A stretch of 64,000 nucleotides of DNA from an uncultured Solirubrobacterales bacterium (GTDB taxonomy: Bacteria; Actinomycetota; Thermoleophilia; Solirubrobacterales; 70-9), in NCBI GenBank assembly GCA_963807425.1, contig CAWEBZ010000002.1, positions 27,614 through 91,613 on the forward strand, given 5' to 3'. The position numbers were made by a program, and so were the translations under genes. The notes beneath the pieces were generated by a model. That model was given only the letters and a program-made list of their open reading frames with translations. It was not told the DNA's origin and did no database searches. Numbering within the stretch: position 1 is the first letter of the stretch; each line of letters starts with the position of its first letter. Shown here one piece after another: positions 12,122 through 38,700 of this stretch.

Positions 12122-12290
12122 CTAGGAGGGACTGGCGAAACCCGAGTGCGCGGGTCAGCGAGCGCCGGACCAAGCGGGGCAAGGACGCAGGGAGCCCGAA
12201 TAGCAGCGCTATTTGGGCGACCGAGGACGTCGCACCGCGCCGTGTCCGCCGCCGCTGAACGCGTGCGGGGGTTTCGCCAGTCCCTCCTAG
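12122..12290 (+). ncRNA. Candidate structured RNA/repeat element, copy 1 (shares its core with 37064-37162)
   Basis: Closed by exact 22-bp arms (12122-12143/12269-12290). Core blocks AAGGACGCAGGGAGC (12181-12195) and GCGACCGAGGACG (12217-12229) are identical to copy 2. Between them is a hairpin of variable sequence, and the flanking 7-bp helix covaries. Strand was chosen because the G.U and G.A pairs only work on the plus strand. Confidence 0.3.
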
Positions 12291-13478
12291 CTACAGGTAC
12301 CCGAGCGGATCGGTCGGCGCGCCGCTGATCCTCACCTCGAAATGGAGGTGATCGCCATAGCAGTGGCCGGTGCAGCCGACATAGCCGATCACGTCGCCTT
12401 GCGAGACGCTCTGCCCGGAGGCAGCGGCAAAGGAGGACTGATGGGCGTAACAGGTCTGCAGGCCGCCGCCGTGGTCGAGGCAGGTGAAGTTGCCATAGCC
12501 ACCGCTTTCCGCTTCGGACTGCAGCAGCACGACCGAGCCCGAGGCAGCGGCACGGATCGGGGTGCCGGCCGGAACCGCGATGTCGATCCCCTCGTGCATG
12601 CGACCCCATCGCATCCCATAGGTCGAAACGACCGCGCCATCGACCGGCCAGATCAGCTGTCCTGAGCCGTAGCGAATCGGTCCCGCCGGTAGGGGTGCCG
12701 AGGCCGTACCGCCGAGCGTCGCCGCGAGTTCAGCCTGGATCTCGGCAACGTCGCCGTCGAGGTCCTCTTCGGTCTCGCGAATCTTTGCCAGCGCGGCGAC
12801 ACGCTCTCCGCGCACCGAGACCAGGGCCGACTGGCGTTGCTCCACCGCAGCCCGAGCGTTCGACAGCGCCTGCTCTTCGGCCGCGATAGCGTCGCGCGCC
12901 GCCTCGATCTGGTTCTTCGCGGTGCGCAGTCGCGAGACCGTTTCCTTGACCTGATCGCGCAGTTCCCTCACCCGGCCGACGATCGCCTCGTCCATGCCAT
13001 GGATCCGGTTCAGGTACTCCGCCTGGTCGACGAGGTCGTCATATCCCTCGGCGCTGACTAGGACGCTGAGCACATCGGGGGTGCCGGTCTCGTAGATCGC
13101 GACTAGACGCTCGCGCAGCGCAATCAAAGCCCGCTTCAGGTGCGCTCTCATCACCGCGAGGCGTTTCTTCGCGACGTCGAGCTCGGCGACGGCCCGGTCG
13201 AGTTCCGCCTGCTTGGCGTTGAGGCGGACGCGGACCGCAGCCTCGCGGTTGCGCAGCGCCGCGACCTCAGCCGTGAGCCGGTCGATGCGATCGCCGTAGC
13301 GGGAGATCGTCGTCGTCAGCACGCCCGAGCGTTCGCGCACCTTGGAGAGCTTCGCCTCCTTGGCGTCGAGCTGCGATTCGAGATCCTGGGCTGGCGCCGC
13401 CGTGCTCGCTGCGAGTAGCACGATCAGCGCCGCCACGGCGGCAAGCAGAGCCGCCAGGGCAAGGCGAGTCTTGAGCAT
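12291..13478 (-). CDS. M23/LytM-family peptidoglycan endopeptidase with N-terminal coiled coil
   Basis: Signal/anchor sequence, about 230 aa of heptad-like coiled coil, and C-terminal motifs HEGIDIA and HLHFEV. Confidence 0.85.
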   Translation of the reverse strand: MLKTRLALAALLAAVAALIVLLAASTAAPAQDLESQLDAKEAKLSKVRERSGVLTTTISRYGDRIDRLTAEVAALRNREAAVRVRLNAKQAELDRAVAELDVAKKRLAVMRAHLKRALIALRERLVAIYETGTPDVLSVLVSAEGYDDLVDQAEYLNRIHGMDEAIVGRVRELRDQVKETVSRLRTAKNQIEAARDAIAAEEQALSNARAAVEQRQSALVSVRGERVAALAKIRETEEDLDGDVAEIQAELAATLGGTASAPLPAGPIRYGSGQLIWPVDGAVVSTYGMRWGRMHEGIDIAVPAGTPIRAAASGSVVLLQSEAESGGYGNFTCLDHGGGLQTCYAHQSSFAAASGQSVSQGDVIGYVGCTGHCYGDHLHFEVRISGAPTDPLGYL

Positions 13479-14468: not shown

Positions 14469-14482
14469 GCTCGGAGCTTAAA

Positions 14483-14548
14483 GAGCCGTCGGGGGTCTCT
14501 TCTCAGGAACTCCCGCGAAGCGGCCTGAGAAGAGACCCCCGACGGCTC
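14483..14548 (-). terminator. Intrinsic-terminator-like hairpin after the acyl-CoA dehydrogenase gene
   Basis: Perfect 25-bp stem (14483-14507/14524-14548) with a 16-nt loop, 6 nt after the TAA stop at 14555. It is followed on the minus strand by UUUAAG. Confidence 0.6.
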
Positions 14549-14554
14549 GCCGCC

Positions 14555-35983: not shown

Positions 35984-36056
35984 AGCCCGCCTCCGGAATC
36001 GAACCGGAAACCTCTTGATTACAAATCAAGTGCTCTACCAATTGAGCTAGGCGGGC
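35984..36056 (-). tRNA. tRNA-Thr (anticodon UGU)
   Basis: A manual cloverleaf fold works: acceptor GCCCGCC/GGCGGGC, D arm GCTC-AATTGGTA-GAGC, anticodon arm CTTGA-TTTGTAA-TCAAG, T arm TCCGG-TTCGATT-CCGGA, discriminator T. CCA is not encoded. Confidence 0.9.
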
Positions 36057-36076: not shown

Positions 36077-37066
36077 ATGGACGCGAAGTTTCGGTTTCTG
36101 GAGCCTGACGAGGGCGATGTGCTGTGCGAGGCGATCCGGGTCGCTTACGGAGACAGCTATGACGTGCGCTGGGTATATGACCCAGCCGAGGTATCGGCGC
36201 GACTGGCGGCAGGGACCTATGTGTCATGTGTGGCCGAGTCGGCCGATGGAGAGCTGCTCTGCCATGAGGGGATGAGCCTCAGCGATCCCGGCGACGCCGT
36301 CGGCCACTCGGGCCAGGCGGTGACGATGCCGTCGGCGCGCGGCCAGCACCTCTTCACCCGCACCAAGCAGCACCTGATGGACTGGGCGCGCGAACGAGGC
36401 CTGGCGGGGATGTACAGCGAGGCGACCGCCGCCCACCCCTACAGCCAGCGCGCCAACATCGAGCTAGGTGCGCACGAGACGGGCTTCCTGCTCGGCTGGA
36501 TCCCGGCCTCGGTCTCCAACGACGCGGCGAGCGATGCGCCGCGCCAGCGTCAATCGGCGGCGCTCTTCTACACCAAGTTGAACGACGGCCATGAGCGCGC
36601 GGTCTATGCCCCAGAGCGCCACCGGGAGATAGTCGAGACGACGCTGGAGCTCTGCGAGCTGCGTGGGACGCTGGCCGAGCCCCCGGCCGGAGCCACACTG
36701 GAGGAGCGAACCAAGCTGCAGATCGAGGTCGACGCCGACCACAATCTGGCGCTGATTACCGTGCATGTGCCGGGCCTGGACCTCGAGGCCGTGGTCGCGG
36801 CGGAGCGCCACCACCTCTTCCACCGGGCCGGATTGGACGCCGTCTACCTCGATCTGCCCCTGGAGACCCCGGCGACGGCGCTGGTCGCCGATCACCTCGA
36901 GCGGCTGGGGGTCTCCTATGCCGGCGTCTTCCCCAACAGCCGCACCGACGGCGACGTGCTGCGGATGCAGTCCCTACACCGCGCTCGGATCAAGGCCGAC
37001 GACGTCGCGGTCGCCTCCGAGCACGGCAGGGAATTGCTCGACTACGTGCTCAACGACCTGCCGTAA
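36077..37066 (+). CDS. Hypothetical protein, tentatively with a GNAT-like acetyltransferase N-terminal domain
   Basis: 329 aa. The segment AVTMPSARGQHLFTRTKQHLMDWARERG resembles GNAT motif A. The rest is unassigned. Confidence 0.4.
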   Translation: MDAKFRFLEPDEGDVLCEAIRVAYGDSYDVRWVYDPAEVSARLAAGTYVSCVAESADGELLCHEGMSLSDPGDAVGHSGQAVTMPSARGQHLFTRTKQHLMDWARERGLAGMYSEATAAHPYSQRANIELGAHETGFLLGWIPASVSNDAASDAPRQRQSAALFYTKLNDGHERAVYAPERHREIVETTLELCELRGTLAEPPAGATLEERTKLQIEVDADHNLALITVHVPGLDLEAVVAAERHHLFHRAGLDAVYLDLPLETPATALVADHLERLGVSYAGVFPNSRTDGDVLRMQSLHRARIKADDVAVASEHGRELLDYVLNDLP

Positions 37067-37162
37067 GGCAATTCGGCCAAGCAGATCAAGGACGCAGGGA
37101 GCGAAGCGTGCTTTGCACGCGAGCGACCGAGGACGCCGATATGCGCCAGCCGAATGGCCTTA
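37064..37162 (+). ncRNA. Candidate structured RNA/repeat element, copy 2
   Basis: The outer stem TAAGGCAATTCGGC / GCCGAATGGCCTTA contains both convergent TAA stop codons. Core blocks at 37088-37102 and 37123-37135 are identical to copy 1. The inner hairpin is GCGTGC-TTT-GCACGC. Confidence 0.3.
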
Positions 37163-37873
37163 GAGGGGGGCCTCGCGGGACTCGAGGTGAGCCCCGACCT
37201 TGCGCTTGACCCGCTGCAGGGCGTTGTCGACGGTCTTCGTGTCGCACTCGAGCCGCTCGGCGGTGGCCTCGTAGGAGTGGCCGTCGAGGTAGAGCGAGAG
37301 CACCCGGCTCTCGAGGTCCGAGAGCACGCCCGAGACACCGGAGAGGCAGGAGACCAGACTCTCCAGCTCTTCGGAAGCAATCACCTGGTTGACGGGGTCG
37401 AAGACCGTCGGGCCGGGCAGGATCTCGTCCAGGGTTGTGTCGGAATCGCCCGCGGCAGCGGGGGTCTGGCTAAAGGAGACGTACTGGTTGAGCGGGGTGT
37501 GCTTGTTGCGGGTCGCCGTCTTCACCGCGGTAATGATCTGGCGAGTGATGCAGAGCTCGGCGAAGTTGCGGAAGCTCGACTCGCGGTCGGTGCGGTAATC
37601 GCGGATCGCCTTGTAGAGACCGAGCAGCCCTTCCTGGATCAGGTCGTCGGCCTCGCCGCCGAGCAGGAAGTAGGAAGAGGCCTTCAGCCGCACGAAGCCG
37701 CGATAGCGGCGGACGATCGCGTCATAGGCGTCTGCCCGCCCATCCTTGGCGAGCGCGACCAGATAGTGATCATCAAGCTCAGGTTGAGAGTTAGTCTCGG
37801 CTACCGCGCGGAGAGAGCCATTGAGCCTTCCCGAAGGGAGATGCATTTCCTGCGTAGGCGTAGATAGAGCCAC
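37160..37873 (-). CDS. sigH: Bacillus-type sigma-H-like RNA polymerase sigma factor
   Basis: The motifs FRNFAELCITRQIITAVKTATRNKHTPLN and TVDNALQRVKRKV closely recall B. subtilis SigH (from memory). The GTG at 37873 is preceded by AAGGAGAAGG; an alternative ATG lies at 37846. The cysS-rlmB-sigH synteny also matches. Confidence 0.82.
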   Translation of the reverse strand: MALSTPTQEMHLPSGRLNGSLRAVAETNSQPELDDHYLVALAKDGRADAYDAIVRRYRGFVRLKASSYFLLGGEADDLIQEGLLGLYKAIRDYRTDRESSFRNFAELCITRQIITAVKTATRNKHTPLNQYVSFSQTPAAAGDSDTTLDEILPGPTVFDPVNQVIASEELESLVSCLSGVSGVLSDLESRVLSLYLDGHSYEATAERLECDTKTVDNALQRVKRKVGAHLESREAPL

Positions 37874-38049: not shown

Positions 38050-38700
38050 CTAGCGCTGCCGAACGGCCTCGAAAAGCAGCGCCGCAGCGGCCGCCGAGAC
38101 GTTGAGCGACTCGATCTGGCCACGCTGAGGCAGTGCGATCAACCCATCGCAGGCGGACGCGACCCGGGGCCGGATGCCTTTGCCCTCGCCTCCGAGGACG
38201 AGCACCGTCGGACCGGCGAGGTCGGTGTCCCAGGGAGCCTGCGGCGCATCGGCATCGGCGCCCCAGATCCAGAACCCGGCGCCCTTCGCCTCGCCCAGCC
38301 AGTCGGCCAGGTTGCGAACGCGGGCGATCTGGAGGTGCTCCACGGCGCCCGCCGAAGCCTTGCAGGCGACGGCAGTGACCTCGGCTGAGCGGCGTTCGGG
38401 GATGACGACCCCGGCCGCGCCGGCGACCTCGGCCGAACGACAGACCGCGCCGAGGTTGCGCGGATCCTGAACCTGGTCGAGCACGATCAGCAGCGGACTC
38501 TCGCCGCGCAGGAGCCCCCCCGGGTCGGCGTAGGGATAAGGATCGACCTCGGCGACGACCCCCTGGTGATCCGGCGAGCCGCAGAGCCGCTCCAGCTCCT
38601 CGCCAGAGCTCTCCGGTGCCTTCCACACACGCTGCACCCGCCGCCTCCCCCGTTCCGCCTCGGCAACGGGCTGGCGCCCGTAGATCAGCTGCGAGGCCAT
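38050..38700 (-). CDS. rlmB: SpoU/TrmH-family 23S rRNA 2'-O-methyltransferase (RlmB-like)
   Basis: 216 aa with SpoU methylase motifs (DPRNLGAVCRSAE ... LVLGGEGKG ... IPQRGQIESLNVS). It lies immediately after cysS. Confidence 0.82.
   Translation of the reverse strand: MASQLIYGRQPVAEAERGRRRVQRVWKAPESSGEELERLCGSPDHQGVVAEVDPYPYADPGGLLRGESPLLIVLDQVQDPRNLGAVCRSAEVAGAAGVVIPERRSAEVTAVACKASAGAVEHLQIARVRNLADWLGEAKGAGFWIWGADADAPQAPWDTDLAGPTVLVLGGEGKGIRPRVASACDGLIALPQRGQIESLNVSAAAAALLFEAVRQR

Follow-up and report, generated by a model that had tools for sequence, protein, structure and literature searches.

The REP/BIME elements of Escherichia coli are extragenic palindromes that lie at the 3′ ends of transcription units and stabilise the upstream messenger RNA (mRNA); their RIP/RIB form (BIME-1) has inverted repeats around a centre that is not itself palindromic and binds protein at an IHF site. 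Movement of REPs is ascribed to a single-copy Y1 transposase that works on hairpins (the REPIN/RAYT system). Integron attC sites keep their structure while their sequence varies; one strand folds, with unpaired and extrahelical bases and a variable terminal structure, directly after a gene stop. Insertion of the Correia elements (CREE/NEMIS) of Neisseria duplicates a TA target. Correia elements carry an IHF site and their inverted repeats are cut by RNase III; the ERIC/IRU of enterobacteria are imperfect palindromes of ~127 bp, found across genera in transcribed intergenic regions and at 3′ ends, with an orientation-dependent effect on mRNA; and the SPRITE of Streptococcus pneumoniae is a dispersed, terminator-like hairpin repeat at gene ends (PMC10969869). 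Here we analyse a 99-nt palindrome at positions 37064–37162 (copy 2) of a 64-kb stretch of DNA from an uncultured Solirubrobacterales bacterium (contig CAWEBZ010000002.1; the whole stretch is called the window), where it lies between the converging stop codons of a sigH gene and a 329-amino-acid open reading frame (ORF); a longer relative (copy 1) lies at 12122–12290. The repeat is a dispersed insertion, not a sigH device or a gene-specific RNA. We favour, as the probable reading of copy 2, a dispersed palindromic repeat like a miniature inverted-repeat transposable element (MITE) or REP, with an unusually conserved asymmetric centre, that is probably a passive 3′ hairpin.

Copy 2 is structured beyond chance, and is made up of the following parts.

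37064–37162, + strand: copy 2, the whole short-form element, 99 nt; covariance-model match of 93 bits (E = 2.7e-22)
37064–37077, + strand: 5′ arm of the outer stem P1, TAAGGCAATTCGGC, opening with TAA, the stop of the ORF at 36077–37066
37079–37080, + strand: P1–P2 junction, 5′ AA opposite GCC(A) at 37145–37148
37081–37087, + strand: 5′ strand of P2, GCAGATC, partner of 37138–37144
37088–37102, + strand: conserved block 1, AAGGACGCAGGGAGC, exact in both window copies
37103–37122, + strand: P4, the variable terminal hairpin GAA-GCGTGC-TTT-GCACGC-GA, with the private hairpin GCGTGC-TTT-GCACGC at 37106–37120
37123–37137, + strand: conserved block 2, GCGACCGAGGACGCC, which includes the shared exact 13-mer GCGACCGAGGACG at 37123–37135
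37138–37144, + strand: 3′ strand of P2, GATATGC, partner of 37081–37087
37149–37162, + strand: 3′ arm of P1, GCCGAATGGCCTTA, ending in TTA, which read on the minus strand is the TAA stop of sigH

The P1 arms pair at 13 of 14 positions, with a lone A·G at 37070/37156, and P2 at six of seven, with one G·A. Within block 1, AAGGACGCA forms the 5′ side of a symmetric 9×9 internal loop whose 3′ side is GAGGACGCC, so that AGGACGC is present on both sides of the loop, and the GG, GA and GC of block 1 form an inner helix with the GC, GA and CC of block 2, including a tandem G·A/A·G. The minimum free energy (MFE) of −47.1 kcal/mol (z = −4.0) was equalled by none of 200 shuffles. The + strand of copy 2 is the purine-rich strand and the better-folding one; the reverse strands of both window copies fold slightly worse.

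Insertion polymorphism was found at the sigH site itself. We compared 80 orthologous sigH loci from soil metagenomes (83–96% amino acid identity), 72 of them with at least 120 nt of downstream sequence; the element was missing at 67 of these 72 and present at five, in addition to the window. At the empty sites sigH and the convergent gene abut or overlap, typically in a common CTAG at which both stop at TAG. In the closest relatives of the window (94–96% amino acid identity) the two TAG stops overlap by two bases in the palindromic CTAG and the sequence reads ...gtc TAG GGCAGGTC, where the window reads ...ctc TAA[GGCC...TGCC]TTA CGGCAGGTC; the convergent protein terminates at the same residue in the filled and empty states (...DLP*). 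The 95–99-nt segment is an insertion relative to most orthologous loci, and it entered where sigH and the convergent gene share a CTAG stop overlap. The five filled sites (L148, L175, L176, L178 and L199) all have the element at the sigH stop, with a different downstream neighbour in L178 and L199. L148 and L175 have homologous P1 arms and opposite core orientations, and the cores of L175 and L176 have decayed.

The absence at 67 of 72 orthologous sites, the decay at two of the five filled ones and the occurrence of both orientations at one site count against an alternative that we take seriously but consider unlikely: a host-selected RNA module, in which an mRNA 3′-end hairpin would bind a (dimeric) protein or nuclease and control termination, 3′ processing or stability, dispersed copies having been recruited. 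This alternative draws some support from other empty sites, at which small hairpins occupy the place of the element. Where L171 has a long-form element between GGT and TAACC, L157 and L161 have the palindrome GGTTAACC; the empty site of L081 is the small palindrome CTGAGCC|CGGTCAG and that of L067 is GACC-loop-GGTC. L065 (~2200–2260) has a bare P1-like hairpin, TAAGGCCGCCTGACC-GCC-GGTCGGGCC..CCTTAG, where L012 (4398–4497) has the full element; the bare hairpin is either an ancestral hairpin whose loop received the core or the scar of an internal deletion. Palindromic, hairpin-prone insertion sites would also suit a single-stranded DNA site, an explanation that we think improbable, in which the folded purine strand would be the substrate of an HUH/Y1 transposase (RAYT, IS200/IS605 type) or of a tyrosine recombinase acting as on attC; the enzyme would bind or cleave the conserved loop and so copy or move the element.

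The repeat is widely dispersed. A family scan for GGACGCAGGGAGC-N(8–38)-GCGACCGAGGA, with one genome per species, found both blocks exactly, with a spacer of 8–38 nt, in at least 120 other genome stretches from three orders. Nearly all the matches listed are metagenome-assembled genomes labelled Solirubrobacterales, Gaiellales, Thermoleophilaceae, Thermoleophilia or, more broadly, Actinomycetes or Actinomycetota, and the family is, as far as sampled, confined to the actinobacterial class Thermoleophilia. No copy was found in the viral contigs, plasmids and phages searched. The single match listed without an Actinomycetota label, L100 (JANOSQ010000511.1, 2.5 kb), was binned as Fimbriiglobus (Planctomycetota), which is probably a binning error. 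Within the window the covariance model matched copy 2 and the following element, its next match scoring 14 bits.

12122–12290, + strand: copy 1, in the long form (169 nt); its ends are CTAGGAGGG...CCCTCCTAG; covariance-model match of 74 bits

In copy 1 the 15-mer AAGGACGCAGGGAGC (12181–12195) and the 13-mer GCGACCGAGGACG (12217–12229) are exact, and the window has no third site. Exact 15- and 13-mers common to copy 1 and at least 120 further stretches, at the same spacing, already refute the idea that copy 2 is a locally evolved bidirectional terminator resembling copy 1 by chance; a stable stem between convergent genes is what such a terminator would show, but copy 2 lacks a U tract and at the orthologous site the two genes are normally not separated by any spacer, and we give this idea practically no weight. 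In Rfam 15, at the gathering threshold, the sole window match was a transfer RNA (tRNA) and neither copy matched; at E ≤ 10 both copies gave only chance matches of 12–17 bits to long non-coding RNA or CRISPR-repeat families. The searchable literature held nothing relevant for the core sequence or for Thermoleophilia repeats, and the family, absent from both sources, is apparently undescribed.

Read on the window + strand, the element runs from P1 through a small junction, P2 (7 bp), the 9×9 loop and the inner helix (GG-GA-GC/GC-GA-CC, including tandem G·A) to P4. P1 is variable: ~15 bp in the short form and 55–60 nt per arm in the long form, its arm sequence differing between copies and subfamilies though the arms pair. 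P2 is the best-covarying helix of the family, and P4 varies in sequence among copies while its pairing is retained. The junction alternates between AA/GC (60 copies) and GA/GA (17), with mixed AA/GA in three. Long-form copies such as L004, L018, L023, L027, L037, L053 and L087 have, within their outer stem, another conserved internal-loop module, GCGARAACC...GGTTYGCAGC, with an A·G mismatch and a bulged A; it is absent from copy 2 and itself covaries (AAACC/GGTTT, AAGGC/GCCTT, AGAACC/GGTTC). Three copies occur within one short stretch in each of L003 (6.3 kb), L037 and L064 (8 kb each). The P4 hairpins of the three L003 copies are nearly identical and their P2 helices wholly different yet fully compensated, which indicates that within a genome P2 diverges faster than P4.

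The proposed pairing is kept in 79% of cells (shuffles, 65%; slid controls, 27–40%), and doubly changed cells number 464 against 165 in shuffles, with far lower numbers in slid controls. The inner helix is backed by a C to U change, giving a G·U pair, in three copies and by a C–G to G–C exchange in L037:6394 and again, as read from the sequence, in L171. MFE folds that took in 100 nt of flank on either side of the core were discarded, since in DNA so rich in GC they made the stems too long; the structure is real because the stems covary strongly. At 99 and 169 nt the element is non-coding, with a core that shows no change at any of the three codon phases. The covariance model found eight more, non-exact copies in 749 kb of fetched loci, and these support the inner helix. 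Core invariance in an exact-match scan is partly a matter of ascertainment: among six copies in an unbiased sample of 322 kb, as read from their sequences, one had a perfect core, three had one or two changes and two had decayed. The repeat is a conserved structured family with covarying helices and a conserved internal loop, and to this extent the sequence-only reading, an earlier one made from the letters and ORFs of the window, was borne out. The outer stem, inner helix, shared blocks, private hairpin and both stop codons that it drew all lie where it put them; copies 1 and 2 are, as it held, the same element, by their exact shared blocks and covariance-model matches; and the structured family that it suspected at gene 3′ ends is indeed absent from Rfam.

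The mismatches show which strand folds. Among 81 distinct P2 variants, purine–purine mismatches outnumber pyrimidine–pyrimidine ones by 70 to 12 (p = 4e-11), and GU outnumbers AC by 22 to 8. The comparison was informative when confined to the well-aligned P2; GU and AC counts over the whole stem were not, as the lenient alignments ran into the flanks. Imperfections are therefore benign on the purine-rich strand, which in the window is the + strand: the structural constraint is strand-specific, one strand folding under selection. This signature fits RNA and single-stranded DNA equally, and the conserved centre and the strand asymmetry lend both alternatives introduced above some probability. 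The host RNA module gains from the strong covariation with its compensatory core changes, from the benign mismatches on the purine-rich strand and from the exact core found across three orders. The asymmetry of the mismatches applies equally to DNA hairpins, and a variable stem sequence with conserved structure and loop, as in attC, would favour the single-stranded DNA site; but orientation is unlinked to replication-like GC skew (r = −0.0009 ± 0.0027), no Y1 transposase or integrase gene was seen near copies, GTAG-type REP heads and attC R/L boxes are missing, and the copies are not arrayed.

Copies of the family sit at gene ends. By heuristic ORF and GC3 (third-codon-position G+C) gene calling, a minus-strand gene ends at the right edge in 82 copies, against 19 in which the gene there is on the plus strand, and a plus-strand gene ends at the left edge in 51, against 34 in which the gene there is on the minus strand; 32 contexts are convergent, 34 tandem (24 against 10 by orientation) and only two divergent. 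The stops lie in the terminal bases of P1, their distances peaking at 16–32 nt in the short form and 55–66 nt in the long form. Of 69 copies with just one abutting gene, 50 have their folding strand antisense to that gene (p = 2e-4). The adjoining genes are mutually unrelated (nadE, gyrB, atpD, rplF, ychF, a moaD-like gene and others), 231 flanks fall into 202 clusters with none orthologous to the window loci, and subfamilies sharing the same ends sit at different loci; the end type of copy 1, for example, was seen at other loci of other genomes (L014, L029, L062, L072, L084, L110 and L115). Over the copies as a whole, T downstream of the stem and A upstream of it stay at the background level (~1.7–2.0 per 10 nt), although U runs do occur, in the minus sense, at a few of them (L067, for instance); neither window copy has a promoter-like site, a U tract or a terminator-like site.

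A position at gene 3′ ends, with nearly no copy between divergent genes, is what the host RNA module would predict, but its well-folding strand is mostly antisense and often outside any known transcript, and the adjoining genes share no functional class. A further alternative is an independent small RNA gene on the + strand, which the purine-rich conserved loops, the stable fold and a 110-nt AT-richer spacer preceding copy 1 might suggest. We consider it very improbable: besides lacking a promoter-like site at either window copy, the element has both stem ends touching stops in copy 2 and in the 32 convergent contexts, with no room for a promoter, and no conserved upstream sequence was seen outside the palindrome. 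The sequence-only reading had pictured the element as antisense to the 3′ ends of sigH and of an M23 peptidase gene at copy 1, and as a possible regulatory structure of the 3′-untranslated region or small RNA. The first part needs correction and the second was not supported. The element lies downstream of the stops, overlapping only that of sigH, while copy 1 starts one base past the M23 stop; and its absence from most sigH sites, its two orientations, its decay in some lineages, the antisense folded strand and the lack of a promoter or U tract in the window copies speak against a gene-specific role. Further copies, whose position it had proposed to test, nearly always abut a stop codon. It had also said that its hypothesis would weaken if the blocks were part of a longer dispersed DNA repeat free of structural constraint, and this is partly so; dispersed they are, beside unrelated genes, but the constraint is real and strand-specific.

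The outer stem appears to be partly built from flanking sequence. At L148 and L175 the final four codons of the convergent gene (DLA* and DLS*) make up one P1 arm, and the other arm is an inverted copy of them. In L042 (6974–7073) the arm consists of the IAVRP codons of the left gene, whose reading frame crosses P1 and P2 and ends with a TAG created on the core edge (CAAGGACGC to CTAGGACGC); its product ends ...MTIAVRPLPTKTD, against ...MTIAVRPRPDA at the empty site L067:6427–6571, and the element therefore supplies the last ~six residues. Arms made of codons in these three loci point to a stem drawn in part from its flanks, plausibly by template switching within the palindrome. The element centre can flip or be re-inserted, and Correia elements also invert (PMC10969869).

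Set beside the described systems, the family may work most like the Correia and ERIC MITEs and the RIP/BIME elements of E. coli. Correia elements (~100–200 bp) are likewise dispersed non-coding palindromes with polymorphic insertion and inversion, and they have an internal protein-binding site (for IHF) and mRNA hairpins processed by RNase III. Their terminal repeats are conserved, whereas in the present family it is the centre that is conserved, and the ends differ in a compensated way; they lie mostly upstream of genes, with promoters, whereas this family abuts stops and avoids divergent intergenic regions; and the two have no sequence similarity. ERIC copies are alike over their whole length and belong to a different host clade, and to our knowledge neither the contrast between core and stem nor strand-biased mismatches has been described for them. 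REPs, palindromes of 20–40 nt often found in inverted pairs, conserve stem sequence and a GTAG head within a species; the present family has neither and conserves a non-palindromic centre. In attC the R/L boxes (GTTRRRY) lie at the stem foot, the centre is not conserved and cassettes are arrayed next to intI, whereas this family is conserved in its middle, its copies stand alone amid housekeeping genes, and its stem feet read TAAGG..., CTAGG... or CTGAC..., with no attC boxes (RYYYAAC/GTTRRRY). SPRITE resembles a canonical Rho-independent terminator; this family is without a U tract and has a large conserved internal loop.

Several other candidates were rejected. A kink-turn would need a 3-nt bulge beside the tandem G·A, and there is none; a decoy for CsrA or the anti-Shine–Dalgarno sequence is argued against by orientation, which is wrong for a transcribed purine strand at most copies; bridge RNA of the IS110 type has variable loops and fixed stems, the reverse of this repeat; and known self-cleaving ribozymes gave no Rfam match, and none is known to match the core.

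The MITE/REP-like reading accounts for the position of copy 2 as follows. The family is short (MITEs measure less than ~300 bp) and non-coding, has paired terminal inverted repeats, is dispersed and is present or absent at orthologous sites, as a MITE is, and it is probably mobile. The element would have inserted at the central TA of CTAG with duplication of the TA, its ends (A...T) giving the third base, so that both genes would regain a stop as TAA; this would explain a stem with a stop codon at either end. With the genome at ~70% G+C, the AT-containing targets that it tolerates may be stop codons and their palindromic junctions. The outer stem would later grow or be rebuilt from flanking sequence. 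Once transcribed, either strand would end the flanking mRNAs in a very stable hairpin, and such a passive hairpin may have a terminator or 3′-protection effect without a U tract. The conserved asymmetric centre (AAGGACGCA/GAGGACGCC with the tandem G·A helix) would be a recognition module for a putative trans-acting factor, which most likely would mobilise or copy the element via a folded single strand.

Several observations weigh against this reading. Terminal repeats that vary around a conserved centre are the reverse of ordinary MITEs, and a double-strand cut-and-paste element would not give strand-asymmetric mismatches. No transposase or recurrent neighbour gene was found near copies, only common paralogues such as ABC ATPases and short-chain dehydrogenases/reductases, and no half-elements flanking an ORF and no autonomous parent were seen in ~1.3 Mb of fetched loci. 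Copy number is modest, with two in 64 kb of the window and six in 322 kb of unbiased sequence; the number per genome is an estimate. The terminator effect predicted for the hairpin would have to arise at copies that lack a U tract, and the empty sites might, in principle, have arisen by deletion and not be ancestral. There is also no consistent target-site duplication, which would sit well with the single-stranded DNA site. A TA duplication is compatible with the sigH and L171 sites at the cost of one substitution each (a synonymous one at sigH) and misfits L003/L005 and L037/L045; in palindromic targets it is indistinguishable from stem, and the palindrome usually extends 1–3 nt beyond the TA.

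We also advance, tentatively and as something we would not expect to prove true, a reading that takes in the conserved centre and the flank-derived arms together. Under it the repeat would be a new hairpin-borne element: a putative dimeric Thermoleophilia enzyme would read the two-fold pseudo-symmetric 9×9 loop of the purine-rich strand, as single-stranded DNA or RNA, and the element would be copied into the centres of small palindromes, notably converging stops, taking its outer stem from inverted flanks. Such hairpin-borne spread, if true, would differ from both classic DDE MITEs and REP/RAYT. On the favoured MITE/REP-like reading, the pairing of the stop codons of two genes would be the footprint of insertion into a common CTAG. 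The family defines a repeat for a poorly studied, abundant class of soil bacteria and inverts the usual rule for small mobile repeats, in that its ends change, with compensation, around a nearly fixed centre. It offers a tractable route to a putative protein partner and to the growth of palindromes into coding flanks, and it carries a warning for annotation: such elements should not be taken for gene-specific riboswitch-like or 3′-untranslated-region regulators.

The M23 peptidase gene next to copy 1 occupies 12291–13478 (minus strand); copy 1 has an MFE of −123 kcal/mol (z = −9.9). Elsewhere in the window, a perfect long hairpin, GCCGTCGGGGGTCTCTTCTC...GAGAAGAGACCCCCGACGGC, lies at 14479–14552, with AAAGA 5′ of it on the + strand; read on the minus strand, the stem has a U run after it and looks like an ordinary terminator, and the covariance model scores it weakly (13 bits), owing to the stem alone.

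The genes on either side of copy 2 are these.

36077–37066, + strand: convergent ORF of 329 amino acids, with no Pfam or NCBIfam family; its stop lies inside the P1 5′ arm
37160–37846, − strand: SigH-like sigma factor gene (SigH equivalog NF006148, 241 bits); its stop lies inside the P1 3′ arm

An orthologue of the 329-amino-acid ORF converges on sigH at most related loci (L121–L197) and ends ...DYVLADLP*. Just upstream of this ORF, at 35984–36056 on the minus strand, lies a tRNA gene (RF00005, 72 bits). The equivalog NF006148 is of the Firmicutes sporulation SigH type and was found here in a genome of a high-GC actinobacterial class. Upstream of sigH, an ORF at 38050–38700 (minus strand) resembles, by eye, an rlmB/TrmH-type methyltransferase; if that identity is right, its place next to sigH would echo the rlmB–sigH neighbourhood of Bacillus.

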